Positions 1 to 5,226 of a DNA stretch of 5,226 nucleotides are shown in pieces. The notes under the pieces were generated by a model that ran no database searches, was not told the DNA's origin, and was given only the letters and a program-made list of their open reading frames with translations. The DNA comes from a virus (lineage: Duplodnaviria > Heunggongvirae > Uroviricota > Caudoviricetes): IMG/VR virus record IMGVR_UViG_2529292907_000022. The stretch is one strand, 5' to 3'. Both the position numbers and the translations under genes were made by a program. Each line of letters begins with the position of its first letter. The first letter of the stretch is position 1.

Positions 1-249
1 ATGCGTATTGAAATCTGCATAGCCAAAGAAAAAATGACTAAAATGCCAACCGGTGCTGTGGATGCGTTAAAGGAAGAATTAACCCGACGCATCAGTAAAC
101 GTTATGACGATGTAGAGGTGATCGTAAAAGCTACCAGCAACGATGGCCTTTCTGTTACGCGCACCGCCGATAAAGATTCAGCTAAAACTTTTGTTCAGGA
201 AACTCTGAAAGATACCTGGGAGTCTGCTGACGAGTGGTTTGTTCACTAA
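1..249 (+). CDS. DinI-like protein (DinI family SOS modulator), complete 82 aa
   Basis: ATG at 1, TAA at 247-249. Translation [82 protein letters not shown] has the DinI hallmarks as I remember E. coli DinI (MRIE..IAK start, RRI, LSV, ETWESADxWFV C-terminus) and the right length (~81 aa). Promoter and any LexA box would lie upstream of the window. Confidence 0.8.
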
Positions 250-317
250 TTAGCACGTAAAATCTGTAACGGCTGGAAATCATTCAATACTCGCACTATC
301 GAAAGTTCACCATCCAA

Positions 318-350
318 CCGCAGCACGTTCTTGCTTAAGACGTGCTGCGG
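318..350. terminator. GC-rich stem-loop between the convergent dinI-like gene and the invertase remnant; candidate terminator or structured element
   Basis: Perfect 10-bp inverted repeat ccgcagcacg (318-327) / cgtgctgcgg (341-350) around a 13-nt loop containing the palindrome cttaag. No convincing T-tract follows on either strand, so the terminator call is weak. Confidence 0.3.
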
Positions 351-379
351 CATAATCCCAATGATTACTCCCTGACAGG

Positions 380-715
380 GTTCGTAGGCCACTCAATATC
401 AGGTGCAGTTGATGTATCAACACGGTTCAGTAACACCCGATACTTTTTCTAGGCTTCCACCACCAGCACGACAAGATGCCGCATACAGTGAACCAGTCAG
501 TCCAGTTTTCAGACAACCAGTGCGTCACCTTTTTGAAGGCGCTTTAAAGCACGTTTTAATCCAGGTCGGCCTGTCCTTGTTCCGCTTAATTTATCTTCAA
601 ATATTTGTTCATATCCTGCACAAACAAGAGCGTTTCGTTGCAGATCTGTATTCTGGTCATTTGTTGATACCCTTACATAGCCAATCAGCACGCTGAATCT
701 CCCGTCCAAAAGCAC
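380..715 (-). pseudogene. Din-family serine recombinase / DNA invertase (Gin/Pin/Cin/Hin-like), disrupted remnant
   Basis: Minus-strand ORF 509-715 encodes (M)LLDGRFSVLIGYVRVSTNDQNTDLQRNALVCAGYEQIFEDKLSGTRTGRPGLKRALKRLQKGDALVV, which matches the N-terminus of Gin/Pin-type invertases including the catalytic-serine motif YVRVSTNDQ. The likely true start is the in-frame GTG at 689-691 (VLIGYVRV = canonical MLIGYVRV), preceded by gggag. The same frame continues *KLD*LVHCMRHLVVLVVEA*KKY...: TGA at 509-511 where the conserved Trp of VVWKLDRLGRS is expected, TGA at 497-499 where Arg is expected, TAG at 449-451, and further stops. Recognisable similarity fades by about position 400. The C-terminal helix-turn-helix domain cannot fit before the dinI-like stop at 249. 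Confidence 0.8.
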
Positions 716-745
716 AAATCATGCCATGCAGGCCAGAAACCGCCA

Positions 746-771
746 TTATCTAAAACCTCGGTTTACAGGAA
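746..771. other. Left crossover site for the invertase (26-bp gix/pix/cix-like)
   Basis: ttatctaaaacctcggtttacaggaa: two imperfect inverted half-sites around a central tc (758-759). It differs by one base from the Mu gix sequence as I recall it (TTATCCAAAACCTCGGTTTACAGGAA). It is an inverted match (22/26, 12-bp core identical) to the site at 3743-3768 and lies about 30 bp upstream of the invertase start. Confidence 0.8.
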
Positions 772-1953
772 ACGGTAAATCAGGCTTCTGGCGCATTACA
801 GAAAAAACAGAACGGCGCAGATATTCCAGGAAAAGATACCTTCATCAAAAATATTGGGGCCTGCCGCGCATATAGCGCATGGCTGAATATTGGTGGCGAT
901 AGTCAGGTCTGGACAACCGCGCAATTTATTTCGTGGCTGGAGAGTCAGGGAGCATTTAACCATCCTTACTGGATGTGCAAAGGCTCATGGACTTATGCAA
1001 ATAATAAGGTCATTACAGATACAGGTTGCGGAAATATTTGTCTTGCAGGTGCTGTGGTGGAAGTTATTGGCACTCGCGGCGCAATGACCATACGCGTTAC
1101 CACGCCGAGCACGTCCAGCGGTGGCGGAATTACTAACGCTCAATTCACTTATATTAATCATGGTGATGCTTATGCTCCTGGCTGGCGACGAGACTACAAC
1201 ACGAAAAATCAACAACCTGCATTTGCTTTAGGGCAAACAGGAAGCACTGTCGGAAATGATAAAGCTGTTGGCTGGAACTGGAATAGCGGGGTCTATAACG
1301 CAAACATTGGTGGCGCATCGACATTAATCCTCCACTTCAATATGAATACGGGGAGCTGCCCTGCTGTACAGTTCCGCGTGAATTACAGGAACGGCGGTAT
1401 TTTTTATCGTTCAGCCCGTGATGGTTATGGTTTTGAAGCCGACTGGTCCGAATTTTACACCACCACCAGAAAACCTTCAGCAGGAGATGTTGGTGCACTG
1501 CCGTTATCTGGTGGTCAACTGAATGGTGCACTGGGTATCGGAACATCCAGTGCTCTTGGCGGTAATTCGATTGTATTGGGTGATAATGACACGGGCTTTA
1601 AACAAAATGGCGATGGTAATCTGGACGTTTATGCTAATAACGTCCATGTTATGCGCTTTGTTTCCGGCGGCATTCAAAGTAATAAAACCATAAATATTAC
1701 AGGGCGTGTTAACCCCTCGGATTACGGTAACTTTGATTCCCGTTATGTGAAAGATGTTCGACTTGGTTCACAGCAATATTATGGAGTGAACAACTGGCAA
1801 ACATGGAATTTCCAGTGCCCTTCAGGTCATGTATTGTCTGGTATTAATGTTCAGGATACAGGGTCTAACTCTGCCGATAATATAGCGGGCGTTTATTACA
1901 GACCCGTTCAAAAGTATATAAATGGCACCTGGTATAATGTAGCGAGCGTTTAA
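754..1953 (+). CDS. Silent alternative tail-fibre C-terminal (receptor-binding) cassette, Sv'-like; promoterless, starts inside the crossover site
   Basis: Frame 1 is open from 754 to TAA at 1951-1953 with no start codon until 973: [79 protein letters not shown]... It shares a near-identical core ([48 protein letters not shown]) and the C-terminal motif INGTWYN with the expressed fibre tip. Inversion at the central dinucleotides would fuse it in frame to the constant part: ...AAVIEYLGL + QETVNQ... Confidence 0.8.
1360..1436 (+). repeat. Internal inverted repeat, copy A (77 bp, perfect) within the silent Sv' cassette
   Basis: cctgctgtacagttccgcgtgaattacaggaacggcggtattttttatcgttcagcccgtgatggttatggttttga is the exact reverse complement of 3327-3403. 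Flanking sequence stays similar with mostly synonymous differences. Confidence 0.8.
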
Positions 1954-1954
1954 T

Positions 1955-2483
1955 ATGATGCACTTAAAGAACATAAAAGCGGGTAATGCTAAAACACTGG
2001 AACAGTATGAGTTAACAAAGAAACACGGAGTTATCTGGCTTTACTCTGAGGACGGAAAAAACTGGTATGAGGAAGTGAAAAACTTTCAGCCAGACACCAT
2101 AAAGATTGTTTACGATGAAAATAATATTATTGTCGCCATCACCAGAGATGCCTCCACGCTTAATCCCGAAGGTTTTTAGCGTCGTCGAGGTTCCCGATAT
2201 AACGGCCAATCGTCGGACCGATGATTCCGGTAAGTGGATGTTTAAGGATGGAGCTGTGGTTAAACGGATTTATACGGCAGACGAACAGCAACAACAGGCC
2301 GAATCACAAAAGGCCGCATTGCTTTCCGAAGCTGAATCAGTCATCCAGCCGCTGGAACGCGCTGTCAGGTTGAATATGGCAACAGACGAGGAACGCACAC
2401 GACTGGAAGCATGGGAACGCTACAGTGTTCTGGTCAGCCGTGTGGATACGGCAAATCCTGAATGGACACAAAAGCCTGAATAA
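1955..2483 (+). pseudogene. Tail fibre assembly chaperone Tfa' (Mu U'-like), split by a +1 frameshift at a T5 run
   Basis: ATG at 1955 overlaps the Sv' stop (taATATGATG). The N-terminal frame [74 protein letters not shown] stops at TAG 2177-2179. The protein continues in the +1 frame as [32 protein letters not shown]...PEWTQKPE to TAA 2481-2483, colinear with the minus-strand paralogue ([18 protein letters not shown]). The break is at ttttt 2173-2177; T4 would restore the frame. Confidence 0.7.
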
Positions 2484-2488
2484 AAATT

Positions 2489-2508
2489 AAGGCCCGCTAT
2501 CGGGCCTT
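2489..2508. terminator. Hairpin at the centre of the invertible segment between the convergent tfa genes; likely intrinsic terminator, best on the minus strand
   Basis: aaggcccg-ctat-cgggcctt: perfect 8-bp stem, 4-nt loop. It lies 5 nt after the tfa' stop (2481-2483) and 3 nt after the tfa stop (2512-2514). On the minus strand the stem is followed by aattttta; the plus-strand tail (gtctcatt) is weaker. Confidence 0.5.
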
Positions 2509-2511
2509 GTC

Positions 2512-3044
2512 TCATTCAGGTTGTTCGGGAAATGTTACTGGCAGGCTGGAGGTGTCTGTAGATTCGACTTTCTGCGCATAGAGCATCCACCCGGTTAATT
2601 TTTGTTTATTCTCGTCGGAAATGATGCCCAGCCGTAGCTGTGAGTCCCATAGCTGGGTTTTATCCCTGACAAGTTGCAACAGGCTTTGCTTTTCATTCTC
2701 TGCCTGCTGCCTCTGTTCCTCCTCGGTATAAGTTCGCTTTATCACTGCGCCATCTTTGAACATCCATTTACCCGAAATATCAGCACGGCGATTTGCTGTA
2801 ATATCAGGTAATTCAACGACGCTTGCGCCTTCCGGATTAATTGCTGAAACATCCTTTTCAATACAAATAATAACGCCGTTATGGTCATAGGCCATTTTCA
2901 ATGTGTCTGGCCGGAAATTCTTTTGTTCCTCATACCAGTTTTTCCATCATCTGAATAAAGCCATTTGATGTTAAATTGCTTTGTTAGCTGGTATTGCTCT
3001 TTTGTTTTAGGATTGCCAGCAGTAATGTTTTTTAAGTGCATCAT
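2512..3044 (-). pseudogene. Tail fibre assembly chaperone Tfa (Mu U-like) for the expressed fibre, split by a -1 frameshift at an A5 run
   Basis: Minus-strand ATG at 3044-3042, 2 nt after the fibre stop. The N-terminal frame [35 protein letters not shown] runs into junk and a TGA at 2898-2900. The rest, (W)[50 protein letters not shown]...FPEQPE, is in another frame (ORF 2512-2901). The break is at ggaaaaactgg (plus-strand ttttt 2939-2943); the intact paralogue at 2053-2063 has ggaaaaaactgg (A6). Confidence 0.7.
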
Positions 3045-3046
3045 GA

Positions 3047-5226
3047 TTAAATACTCCCCGCGTTATACCACGTCCCATTAATGCAATACTGAATTGGCCT
3101 TGCCTGAGTTGTATCAATTAATTCATCACGGTTTCCGTTAACTGAACCCGTAACGACATAACCTGACCTGTCAGACCAGCCGGGACCATTCCATGTCCGA
3201 ACAGATGACAGACCGCCAAGGCGAATACCTGTAATAAACCTTGAGTTACATTCTGCCTGCGTGTATGCACCAACATCTCCCGCAGAGGGTTTGCGGGTCG
3301 TGGTGTAAAACTCTGACCAGTCAGCCTCAAAACCATAACCATCACGGGCTGAACGATAAAAAATACCGCCGTTCCTGTAATTCACGCGGAACTGTACAGC
3401 AGGACAACTTCCTTCTCCCATATAAAAATGAATAATTAACGTTGATGCACCACTAATAGTTGCGTTATAAGCTCCGCTACTCCAGTTCCATCCAACTGCT
3501 TTATCATTCGCAACGGTGCTTCCTGTTTTCCCTAAGGCAAACGCACCAACATGACTTGCTTTTAATGTGATATCGGAGGAACCATCAAAAGCCACATTGC
3601 TTATTTTCCTGGCAGTTTTTAATTTTGCAGCTGTAGAAGCATTGCCGGATAGTTCACCAGAAAGGCCACTGCTGAATGTTTGTCGATTAGTCCAGGTATT
3701 CGCTGTACTGAGTAACGGTATTTTCTCCCCTCTTGTGCCGAGTTCTCGTAAACCGAGGTATTCGATAACGGCAGCAACGGTCGATTTCGCAAGAATATCC
3801 CGCCCGACTTTTGTCAGGGTTGCCAGGCTGGCGACATCATTCCCCGTAAAATACGGAAACTTGCCTGCCGCAGTAGTAAGTCCGGCCAGCGCCGTCAGGG
3901 TGGCATCTTTCGGTTGCTTACCCGCAAGCGCGTTAGTCATGGTGGTCGCAAAATTCGGGTCGTTGCCCAGCGCCGCAGCCAACTCGTTCAGCGTATTCAG
4001 TGCATCAGGTGACGAATCTACAAGGGCGGCAATCGCAGCCATAACGAAAGCCGTGCTTGCGATTTGGGTATTATTCGTTCCCTGTCGCGCAGTTGGCGTT
4101 GTTGGCGTTCCGGTCAGTGCAGGACTATTTAAGGGCGCTTTCTTGTTCGTTTCACCCATTACCGCCTTAACCGCTTTTGGCGTTGCCGCCAGTGACTCGG
4201 AAGTGCTGTTGGTCGCACTGCTGAGCTGTACTATCACCTTTTTCGTCGTGCTCGCATCCTCCAGCGCCACGGCGGATGCAATATCCTCTGCCCGTTTTGC
4301 TGCTGTCTCGGCGCGCGTTGCCGCGGATTCAGCAGCAACTTTGCTCTGAGATGCAGCCGTCGCACTGCCTGCCGCCTCTGATGCTTTCGTTGTTGCTGTC
4401 GTGGCACTACCTTTCGCTGCTGACGCTTGTCTGGTCGCCTCATCTTTTGAAGCAGACGCAGATGATGCCGATGACGCCGCTGAACTGGCTGACGATGCGG
4501 CTGCCGCCTTAGAGGAAGCAGCATTGTCTGCTGAAGTCTTTGCATTTGTTTCAGAGGTTTTTGCTGCAGAAGCAGACCTCGCTGCTGCAGTGGCTTGCTC
4601 AGTGGCTTTGCCAGCCTTCGTGTGGCTGTCGAAGCGGATGATGCGGCGCTTTCTGCCGATTTTCCGGCGGCGGTGGCACTGGCTGAGGCCTGCCCCGGCA
4701 CTTGTTGACGCGGCACTGGCAGATAATGCAGCCGCTGTTTTGAACCTGCCGCAGCTGAGGCGCTCTGTCCCGCTGCTGTTTCAGAAGACTTAGCGTTCGT
4801 CTCGGACGTTTTTGCCGCCTTCGCGGAATTTCCTGCCGCCGTTGCCGAGGAAGCTGCACTACTGGCACTTGATGATGCATTCGTTTCTGAAGATTTCGCT
4901 GCCTCTTTTGAGGCCGCCGCACCCCGTGCCGAGGTGGCAGCTTCTGACGCCTTCGTGGTCGCTGTGGATGCAGAAGTGGCTGCCGATTTTTGTGATGCTG
5001 CGGCATTCGTTTCTGACGTTTTCGCGGCACTGGCGCTGGTAGCTGCCGCGCTTTTTGATGACTCTGCAGCAGCAGCACTTTTTGCTGCTTCACGGGTCTT
5101 TGTCGATGCCGTTCCTGCGCTGGAAGACGCTGACTGAGCCGACGACGCGGCCTGTCCGGCTGACGTGCTGGCTGCACGTGCTGAGCCTGCAGCATCAGTC
5201 GCATGAGTTGCCGCCTCGCTGGCTGA
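3047..5226 (-). CDS. Side tail fibre protein (lambdoid Stf-like shaft with Mu S-like invertible C-terminus); 5' end outside window; frame disrupted around 4620-4745
   Basis: Minus-strand ORF 3047-4270 ends ...[12 protein letters not shown] with stop at 3049-3047. Its frame stays open upstream and carries the Stf-like stretch [41 protein letters not shown]...[31 protein letters not shown]. From 5226 down to about 4742 a different frame carries the repeat shaft ([26 protein letters not shown] and similar). The right crossover site lies inside the coding sequence at ...[19 protein letters not shown]. Confidence 0.85.
3327..3403 (-). repeat. Internal inverted repeat, copy B (77 bp, perfect) within the expressed fibre tip
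   Basis: Reverse complement of 3327-3403 equals 1360-1436 exactly. Both copies encode the shared core ...[28 protein letters not shown]... Confidence 0.8.
3743..3768. other. Right crossover site (26 bp), inverted relative to the left site, inside the fibre coding sequence
   Basis: ttctcgtaaaccgaggtattcgataa compared with the reverse complement of the left site ttcctgtaaaccgaggttttagataa: 22/26 identical, 12-bp core gtaaaccgaggt identical. It sits at the constant/variable boundary of the fibre (VIEYLGL). Confidence 0.8.
4280..5226 (-). repeat. Ala/Ser/Thr-rich low-complexity repeat region of the fibre shaft (degenerate [12 protein letters not shown]-type repeats)
   Basis: Hand translation gives runs such as [99 protein letters not shown]-rich GCN-codon composition leaves long spurious open frames on both strands. 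Confidence 0.7.

Follow-up and report, generated by a model that had tools for sequence, protein, structure and literature searches.

The five single-base frameshifts that interrupt the tail-fibre locus of a lambdoid prophage in the draft genome of E. coli DEC6B would, with a probability of about 0.85 and judging from sequence, be run-length miscalls in the draft consensus and not biological lesions. This reading is supported because the same type of lesion splits the essential gene aspS on the same contig, a near-identical paralogue in the same genome is intact, the changes lie towards a contig end and the truncated products are unique to this assembly. The original prediction had proposed either a decaying cryptic prophage or an assembly prone to homopolymer errors; the latter is strongly supported for all five indels, whereas the indels lend no support to the former.

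The window, that is, the whole stretch of 5,226 nucleotides analysed here, is the final 5.2 kb of contig AIFW01000027.1 of the DEC6B draft (2012), so that the earlier mention of Shigella was wrong as to the source. It corresponds to positions 9029 to 14254 of locus L006, and the 76,191-bp contig terminates at L006 position 14255, 1 nt past the window. The right end of the prophage lies here beside yecD/aspS, and the contig breaks off within the tail-fibre gene. The outermost gene of the right arm, adjoining chromosomal yecD, is an intact dinI-like gene (positions 1 to 249, plus strand; 82 aa), an open reading frame with a Pfam DinI match whose product has exact matches on at least 1000 contigs and which occupies the equivalent position in SF-088 and JX2. 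Positions 1 to 459 are 99.6% identical to SF-088. Genomes were compared against a set of 5,426 finished E. coli genomes, and protein look-ups were made among about 15 billion proteins. The best match of the whole window by megablast in the finished genomes was 95% identity over 82% of its length; the tfa/tfa'/Sv stretch reached at best 96.7%, leaving no sister genome in that set for a site-by-site comparison. An exact match to 60 nt across the junction of dinI and the tfa remnant was likewise absent from a contig collection with one genome for each species, of which DEC6B is not a member.

The side tail fibre gene of this lambdoid prophage would bear an invertible host-range module of the Mu G / P1 C type, in the order constant shaft, crossover site, Sv, tfa, tfa', Sv', crossover site and invertase. 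As seen in the window, two 26-bp crossover sites are inverted relative to each other and fit the consensus of the Gin/Cin/Pin family. The left site (TTATCTAAAACCTCGGTTTACAGGAA; 746 to 771, plus strand) was identified as an inverted repeat with 25/26 positions identical to Mu gixR, and its half-sites are identical to those given for EC958 Phi4 (PMC4134206). The right site (3743 to 3768, minus strand; coding strand TTATCGAATACCTCGGTTTACGAGAA) has half-sites that match EC958 Phi1/Phi4. Next to the left site, the Sv' cassette (754 to 1953, plus strand) is an alternative fibre C-terminus that does not begin with its own start codon; its translation is open throughout, and it is free of indels against locus L004 (over 1 to 1497) and against L001 (over 1218 to 1953). 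By protein look-up this open reading frame was found in DEC6B only, where it is annotated as bv' protein. The variable fibre tip joined at present, Sv (3047 to 3755, minus strand), forms part of a 407-aa open reading frame that extends across the proximal constant part (3047 to 4270), and shows zero indels against L001 or L007. The open or intact frames reported earlier for Sv', the Sv tip and the dinI-like gene were thus borne out. Between the cassettes, tfa' (1955 to 2483, plus strand) and tfa (2512 to 3044, minus strand) are convergent tail fibre assembly genes, both with Caudo_TAP Pfam matches and with homology to Mu U' and U, respectively, and both are frameshifted. The constant, Ala/Ser-rich fibre shaft occupies positions 3756 to 5226 (minus strand) and is partial. 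At the crossover site, VIEYLGL is now followed by RELGT and, after inversion, would be followed by QETVNQ; both cassettes, Sv' once inverted, are in frame with the constant part across the site.

At the other end of the module lies the 5' stub of a serine DNA invertase (460 to 715, minus strand), recognized by alignment with Mu Gin and with the invertase of phage 503458. Its start codon, a GTG homologous to that of Mu gin, is at 691, and a further in-frame GTG is found upstream at 715. From 691 to 460, the gene keeps about 77 of some 194 to 199 codons, fused to the last 31 or so codons of a lambda-type tfa (365 to 459, minus strand), which correspond to the end of the intact 585-bp tfa in SF-088. 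A diverged invertase had also been considered for positions 365 to 459 and was ruled out by this match to an intact tfa. The first 60 invertase codons are identical to Mu Gin at 57 positions, the stub lacks the E-helix and HTH domain, and no complete invertase gene is adjacent. One TGA (509 to 511) is a nonsense substitution within the stub, with TGG in relatives. Another, at 497 to 499, occurs in all four lambdoid loci compared (the window, L001, L002 and L004); it marks the point where close identity to intact invertases stops and ends the 72-aa recombinase open reading frame annotated in L002 and L004. A TAG at 449 to 451 sits in the tfa remnant, where intact genes have TGG. The invertase/tfa junction is identical in NCTC86, ET76 and JX2, and the 60-aa invertase product is present on 999 contigs, S. 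sonnei among them. The invertase lesion described earlier is therefore real and no sequencing error, but what remains is a stub truncated by deletion, not a gene of full length interrupted by nonsense substitutions. This is an ancestral truncation and fusion common to many E. coli, uninformative on this strain. An old deletion fused the stub to what was left of the original lambda-type tfa, its 3' end, and the dead stub is inherited by many E. coli prophages, the segments of which would be flipped, if at all, by an invertase acting in trans. In Mu, P1 and Hin, the 5' part of the invertase gene contains a Fis-dependent enhancer. Between the crossover site and codon 64 or so, the window is about 95% identical to the 5' region of Mu gin, and the enhancer has probably been retained.

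By analogy, the biology of this locus would be that already described for EC958 Phi4, namely, an orphan host-range switch of the Mu type that is carried by a lambdoid fibre, whose invertase survives as a dead stub and which is flipped in trans. The truncated invertase is an old, widespread and already described feature that matches EC958 Phi4 (PMC4134206). In both, the invertible tail-fibre segment measures about 3 kb (3,023 bp in the window and 3,106 bp in Phi4; PMC4134206); the two share the same four half-sites, TTATCTAAAACCTC / TTATCGAATACCTC paired with GGTTTACAGGAA / GGTTTACGAGAA, and carry severely truncated invertases without the HTH domain. In Phi4 the segment inverts in culture despite this truncation, which the authors credit to an enzyme in trans (Forde et al. 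2014, PMC4134206), and we infer that inversion in trans applies to DEC6B as well. The orientation of the segment in ET76 is the reverse of that in JX2, although both share the invertase stub. Unlike in Phi4, the half-site pairing is reversed here, and the segment in the window is therefore inverted with respect to the EC958 reference; no close match elsewhere exists for the Sv' and tfa' alleles of the window, and the window as deposited has five frameshifts. The arrangement also follows the Mu G segment with Gin (and P1/P7 C with Cin and e14 P with Pin) in the order Sc, crossover site, Sv-U, U'-Sv', crossover site and invertase, the module DNA being about 89 to 92% identical to that of Mu, D108 and P1. 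In contrast to Mu G, however, the fibre onto which the module has been grafted is a lambdoid side tail fibre, whose long shaft is rich in Ala and Ser; of the invertase, 77 codons are all that is left, joined to a lambda-type tfa 3' end, and no cognate enzyme is encoded. The lambdoid prophage at the yecD/aspS site of E. coli SF-088 lacks the switch. It has the same chromosomal flank, with 99.6% identity in the dinI-like gene and the 3' end of tfa and 98% in the shaft; it carries a plain stf-tfa pair, whereas in the window the invertible module takes the place of most of tfa and of the 3' end of stf.

Relative to every intact reference, the five single-base indels reported earlier do exist, and each is a change of ±1 in a mononucleotide run. 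In tfa', an extra T turns T4 into T5 (2173 to 2177); in tfa, one T is missing and T6 becomes T5 (2939 to 2943; A6 to A5 on the coding strand). The shaft carries the other three, TT to T at 4621, C3 to C4 at 4693 to 4696 and T5 to T4 at 4738 to 4741. The change at 4621 is less typical of run-length errors and counts against a miscall. Correcting the run lengths fully restores the frames, giving a clean tfa' of 175 aa, a tfa of 177 aa and a fibre of 726 aa, with 0 stop codons in about 1,080 codons. The repaired N-terminal shaft reads as the open frame of a second DEC6B contig; farther downstream, a few residues differ. In the look-up among about 15 billion proteins, the truncated products as deposited (74, 129 and 370 aa) were confined to a single contig, the 74-aa one, from tfa', being found in DEC6B only. 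An exact protein look-up with the repaired Tfa and Tfa' sequences returned zero matches, and the repaired alleles are without an independent assembly confirming them.

A control for assembly error is provided by aspS, an essential, single-copy gene 1.5 kb upstream on the same contig, which is split by a T7 to T6 change at L006 position 7555, the same class of lesion. Among the 5,426 finished E. coli genomes, none matches the 151-nt stretch around this lesion at 100%; the best matches are 99.3% identical and align 152 nt of the record with the 151-nt query, corresponding to one gap. An identical 85-aa AspS fragment is present in the drafts of the unrelated strains DEC4F and DEC8D, and comparable fragments of 81 to 85 aa occur in several Shigella and STEC assemblies. 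The DEC drafts were presumably made by pyrosequencing. Lesions of this kind resemble homopolymer errors of early drafts, in which ±1 run errors split genes, essential ones too, and recur at the same run in unrelated strains. For EC958, differences in homopolymeric tracts are listed between the 454 draft and the PacBio assembly (PMC4134206).

The second DEC6B contig, AIFW01000052.1, contains a copy that is 99.8% identical to the shaft and differs from window positions 4200 to 5226 by 2 substitutions and 3 indels, a 3:2 ratio of indels to substitutions that is unlike the outcome of sequence evolution. Its run lengths equal the reference at 2939, 4621, 4693 and 4738, and its tfa paralogue has T6 and is an intact gene of 177 aa. 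It terminates at the same homologous base as the window contig. On this contig an Sv' cassette is joined to a constant part that, however, represents a third copy and is not identical. AIFW01000052.1 has two single-base T-run deletions of its own, in tfa' (3257) and Sv' (4105), and therefore "silent" parts are also affected. A contig end inside sequence with at least two or three near-identical genomic copies would worsen miscalls.

If the indels were instead real, this prophage copy would be decaying, with fibre, tfa and tfa' each inactivated by slippage on top of the old invertase truncation, which we regard as improbable. In its favour, the truncated invertase and two substitution stops are genuine and have been inherited. 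Defects are frequent among the lambdoid prophages of E. coli (the split fibre of the NCTC86 relative, for example, is annotated as a pseudogene), and the indel density, at 5 in 2.6 kb, is about 16 times that of the 8.4 kb of chromosomal DNA alongside, which holds one frameshifting indel. Because of this density, the miscall reading needs the added assumption that a contig end in a repeat degrades the consensus. Against decay, however, no stop appears in the repaired codons, the shaft differs from the intact paralogue of the same genome by more indels than substitutions, every truncated product is confined to this one assembly, and aspS, which is essential, carries the same type of lesion on the same contig; moreover, the three shaft indels crowd into 120 bp, about 500 bp short of the contig end. 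The disrupted genes show neither extra stops nor larger deletions, and inherited inactivating lesions are restricted to the truncated invertase with its TGA, seen on 999 contigs. We give a slightly smaller chance to the more specific version in which the joined fibre and both chaperones of one copy were lost very recently in DEC6B by slippage, beside a near-identical intact paralogue.

The same results bear on the claim that every expressed component is disrupted while the silent ones are intact, a pattern that proved not significant (P of about 0.04 to 0.22). The probability that five random indels spare dinI, Sv' and Sv is 0.04 to 0.08, and it is 0.14 to 0.22 when the three indels within 120 bp are counted as one event. 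Moreover, the grouping was picked after the fact, since the clean Sv tip itself belongs to the expressed fibre. This distribution is the sole support for the idea that selection silenced the expressed fibre and chaperones and kept the silent cassette, leaving, for example, no receptor-binding protein yet a reserve allele. That idea is very improbable, as the distribution fits chance, tfa' is broken even though it is one of the silent parts, and the lesions of the paralogous contig fall in tfa' and Sv'; in addition, the segment flips in relatives (PMC4134206), so "silent" and "expressed" are interchangeable states. Under the miscall reading, the contrast between broken expressed and intact silent parts would be an accident of where a few errors landed. 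Still more remote is a function for the run-length changes themselves, as phase-variable tracts or programmed ribosomal frameshift sites. The changes are indeed located in mononucleotide runs, but these are only 1 to 6 nt long, shorter than the tracts of known contingency loci. Every relative examined has all three proteins as single continuous open reading frames, and the three shaft shifts total -1 without compensating one another; on these grounds, phase variation and programmed frameshifting were rejected.

Should the frameshifts nevertheless be real, they would show tail-fibre decay at its very beginning, or else selection acting against the expression of one fibre where two are redundant. 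Read as miscalls, they call for caution, in that frameshift "pseudogenes" in early drafts can imitate prophage decay, above all at contig ends in multi-copy tail-fibre genes, and can also hint at selective patterns that do not exist. An essential gene nearby, such as aspS in this case, serves as a quick internal control when it too is frameshifted.

An exact protein look-up found the truncated tfa' product (74 aa) and the Sv' ORF (326 aa) each in a single assembly, E. coli DEC6B, where the two are carried on one 76,191-bp contig, AIFW01000027.1 (GCA_000249615.2; L006). We fetched this contig and found that the window corresponds to L006 9029 to 14254, with the contig stopping one base past it, within the tail-fibre gene. 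The genes upstream are chromosomal (znuB, ruvBA, ruvC, yebC, nudB, aspS and yecD), so the window forms the right-hand end of a prophage. At this site, strain SF-088 carries J-lom-stf-tfa-dinI. ET76, JX2 and NCTC86 carry lom-stf, then an invertible module and a recombinase fragment. Compared with SF-088, the contig also has 125 bp inserted in the interval separating the aspS stop from the nudB start (L006 5895 to 6019). By eye the insertion resembles an ERIC/IRU intergenic repeat, and it cuts the annotated NudB down to 125 aa; this form is present on 741 contigs, so the insertion is a common polymorphism. In addition, a 48-aa ORF on the minus strand (window 246 to 392) extends from the dinI-tfa intergenic region to a point shortly beyond the tfa-remnant stop. 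Public records for hundreds of contigs label it "hypothetical protein" or, in some cases, "nucleocapsid protein", and it is probably a propagated spurious call.

The module is approximately 89 to 92% identical to the G/C segments of Mu, D108, P1 and P7. Its 26-bp crossover sites lie at 746 to 771 (left; 25 of 26 positions identical to Mu gixR) and 3743 to 3768 (right), and between them are Sv' (754 to 1953) and tfa' (1955 to 2483), followed on the minus strand by tfa (2512 to 3044) and Sv (3047 to 3755). The constant Ala/Ser-rich shaft (3756 to 5226, minus strand) is outside the invertible segment, and the crossover joint stays in reading frame in either orientation. Neither the Sv' cassette nor the Tfa' allele after repair has a close full-length match, and at 90% identity the Sv' ORF clusters with no other protein. 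The cassette has a mosaic make-up, resembling the joined Sv of ET76 at 754 to 1497 and the NCTC86 cassette at 1218 to 1953.

As originally noted, the module carries five single-base indels, seen when the window was compared with every intact reference, all of which agree at the five sites, and translation confirmed that the Sv' frame is open. The changes are T4 to T5 in tfa' (2173 to 2177), T6 to T5 in tfa (2939 to 2943) and, in the shaft, TT to T (4621), C3 to C4 (4693 to 4696) and T5 to T4 (4738 to 4741). Correcting these five bases yielded a Tfa' of 175 aa, a Tfa of 177 aa and 726 fibre codons, with no stops in any of them; no independent assembly of the same Tfa and Tfa' alleles was found to confirm the repair.

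Two causes had been proposed for these lesions, prophage decay and a homopolymer-error-prone assembly, and a control 1.5 kb upstream on the same contig bears on both. There, a T7-to-T6 change at L006 7555 breaks the essential aspartate-tRNA ligase gene aspS into two parts of 85 and 504 aa. The stretch is present in all 5,426 finished E. coli genomes, none of which has the change: no match reaches 100%, and the best, at 99.3%, cover 152 nt of the record for 151 nt of query, or one gap. The identical 85-aa AspS N-terminal fragment is annotated in drafts of the unrelated strains DEC4F and DEC8D, with similar 81- to 85-aa fragments in several Shigella and STEC assemblies. Because it recurs, in an essential gene and in drafts only, the aspS frameshift appears to be a systematic miscall. 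For the DEC drafts (Hazen et al. 2012), a pyrosequencing-era pipeline was reportedly used. DEC6B has a second contig, AIFW01000052.1 (4,401 bp), with a paralogous fibre-tfa module that differs from window 4200 to 5226 by 2 substitutions and 3 indels. Its run lengths at 2939, 4621, 4693 and 4738 are those of the references, and the whole of its fibre frame is open. This contig has lesions of its own, with one base deleted from a T run in tfa' and one from a T run in Sv', so run-length lesions in this assembly are not limited to "expressed" parts. Moreover, the truncated products of 74, 129 and 370 aa occur on one contig only among approximately 15 billion proteins. Given the aspS control, the paralogue with reference run lengths and deletions of its own, and these assembly-unique products, the five indels are best explained as assembly error, superimposed on an invertase truncation that is real, ancestral and already described; decay is not favored as their source. 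Eight frameshifting run-length changes were found in the 18.6 kb of DEC6B sequence examined, and indel density in the module is approximately 16 times that of the adjoining chromosomal 8.4 kb, which we attribute by inference to a contig end inside a multi-copy repeat. Both contigs terminate at the same homologous base and thus break at one repeat boundary. AIFW01000052.1 is ordered constant shaft, Sv and tfa, then tfa' and Sv' on the opposite strand, with Sv' leading in frame into a further fragment of the constant part. Since its terminal 260 nt differ from the two other constant-part copies by 9 and 7 mismatches, either DEC6B contains three or more related fibre copies or this contig is chimeric, combining different orientations or copies.

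The noted pattern, with expressed components disrupted and silent ones intact, has little statistical weight and is best explained as assembly error on top of the invertase truncation. The probability that five independent hits miss dinI, Sv' and Sv is 0.04 to 0.08, rising to 0.14 to 0.22 when the three shaft indels within 120 bp count as one event, and the categories were defined after the fact. Nor do they fit every part: tfa' is disrupted although it belongs to the silent side, and the Sv tip is clean although it is part of the expressed fibre. Because inversion of such segments occurs in relatives, neither "silent" nor "expressed" is a fixed state.

The invertase had been described as carrying nonsense substitutions, the one point on which the original reading of the sequence was correct only in part. 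Alignment with the intact invertases of phage 503458 and Mu (Gin) showed approximately 64 near-identical codons and some 13 more that are weakly similar, beyond which lies a junction with a different gene. Window 1 to 459 is 99.6% identical to SF-088, in which the counterpart of 365 to 459 is the last approximately 31 codons of an intact lambda-type tfa; because of this, the gene is a 5' stub that keeps approximately 77 of 194 to 199 codons and is joined to what remains of the 3' end of tfa. The same junction is found in NCTC86, ET76 and JX2, which points to a single ancestral event. Of the three stops, which differ in nature, the TGA at 509 to 511 is a true TGG-to-TGA substitution shared with NCTC86, and its 60-aa product occurs on 999 contigs, including Shigella sonnei, but it lies in a stub and not in an otherwise whole gene. 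The TGA at 497 to 499 marks the point beyond which intact invertases are no longer closely identical. Each of the four lambdoid loci that were compared (window, NCTC86, ET76 and JX2) has it, and it terminates the 72-aa recombinase ORF annotated in ET76 and JX2. The TAG at 449 to 451 falls within the tfa remnant. The DNA around window 691 to 771, reaching from the left crossover site to approximately codon 64 of the invertase, shares approximately 95% identity with the 5' region of Mu gin, which contains the Fis-dependent recombinational enhancer. Retention of this cis element could account for the survival of the dead stub in many prophages.

The architecture of the module is already published for prophage Phi4 of EC958, which has a truncated invertase without the HTH domain (PMC4134206) and shares all four crossover half-sites with the window. 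The Phi4 segment was seen inverting in culture, which its authors credit to an enzyme acting in trans (PMC4134206). ET76 (L002 6950 to 9223) and JX2 (L004 8742 to 11015) carry an approximately 2.3-kb segment in opposite orientations, with the same truncated 72-aa stub and the same flanks. The two orientations are consistent with inversion after the truncation, with the invertase supplied in trans as proposed for EC958 Phi4.
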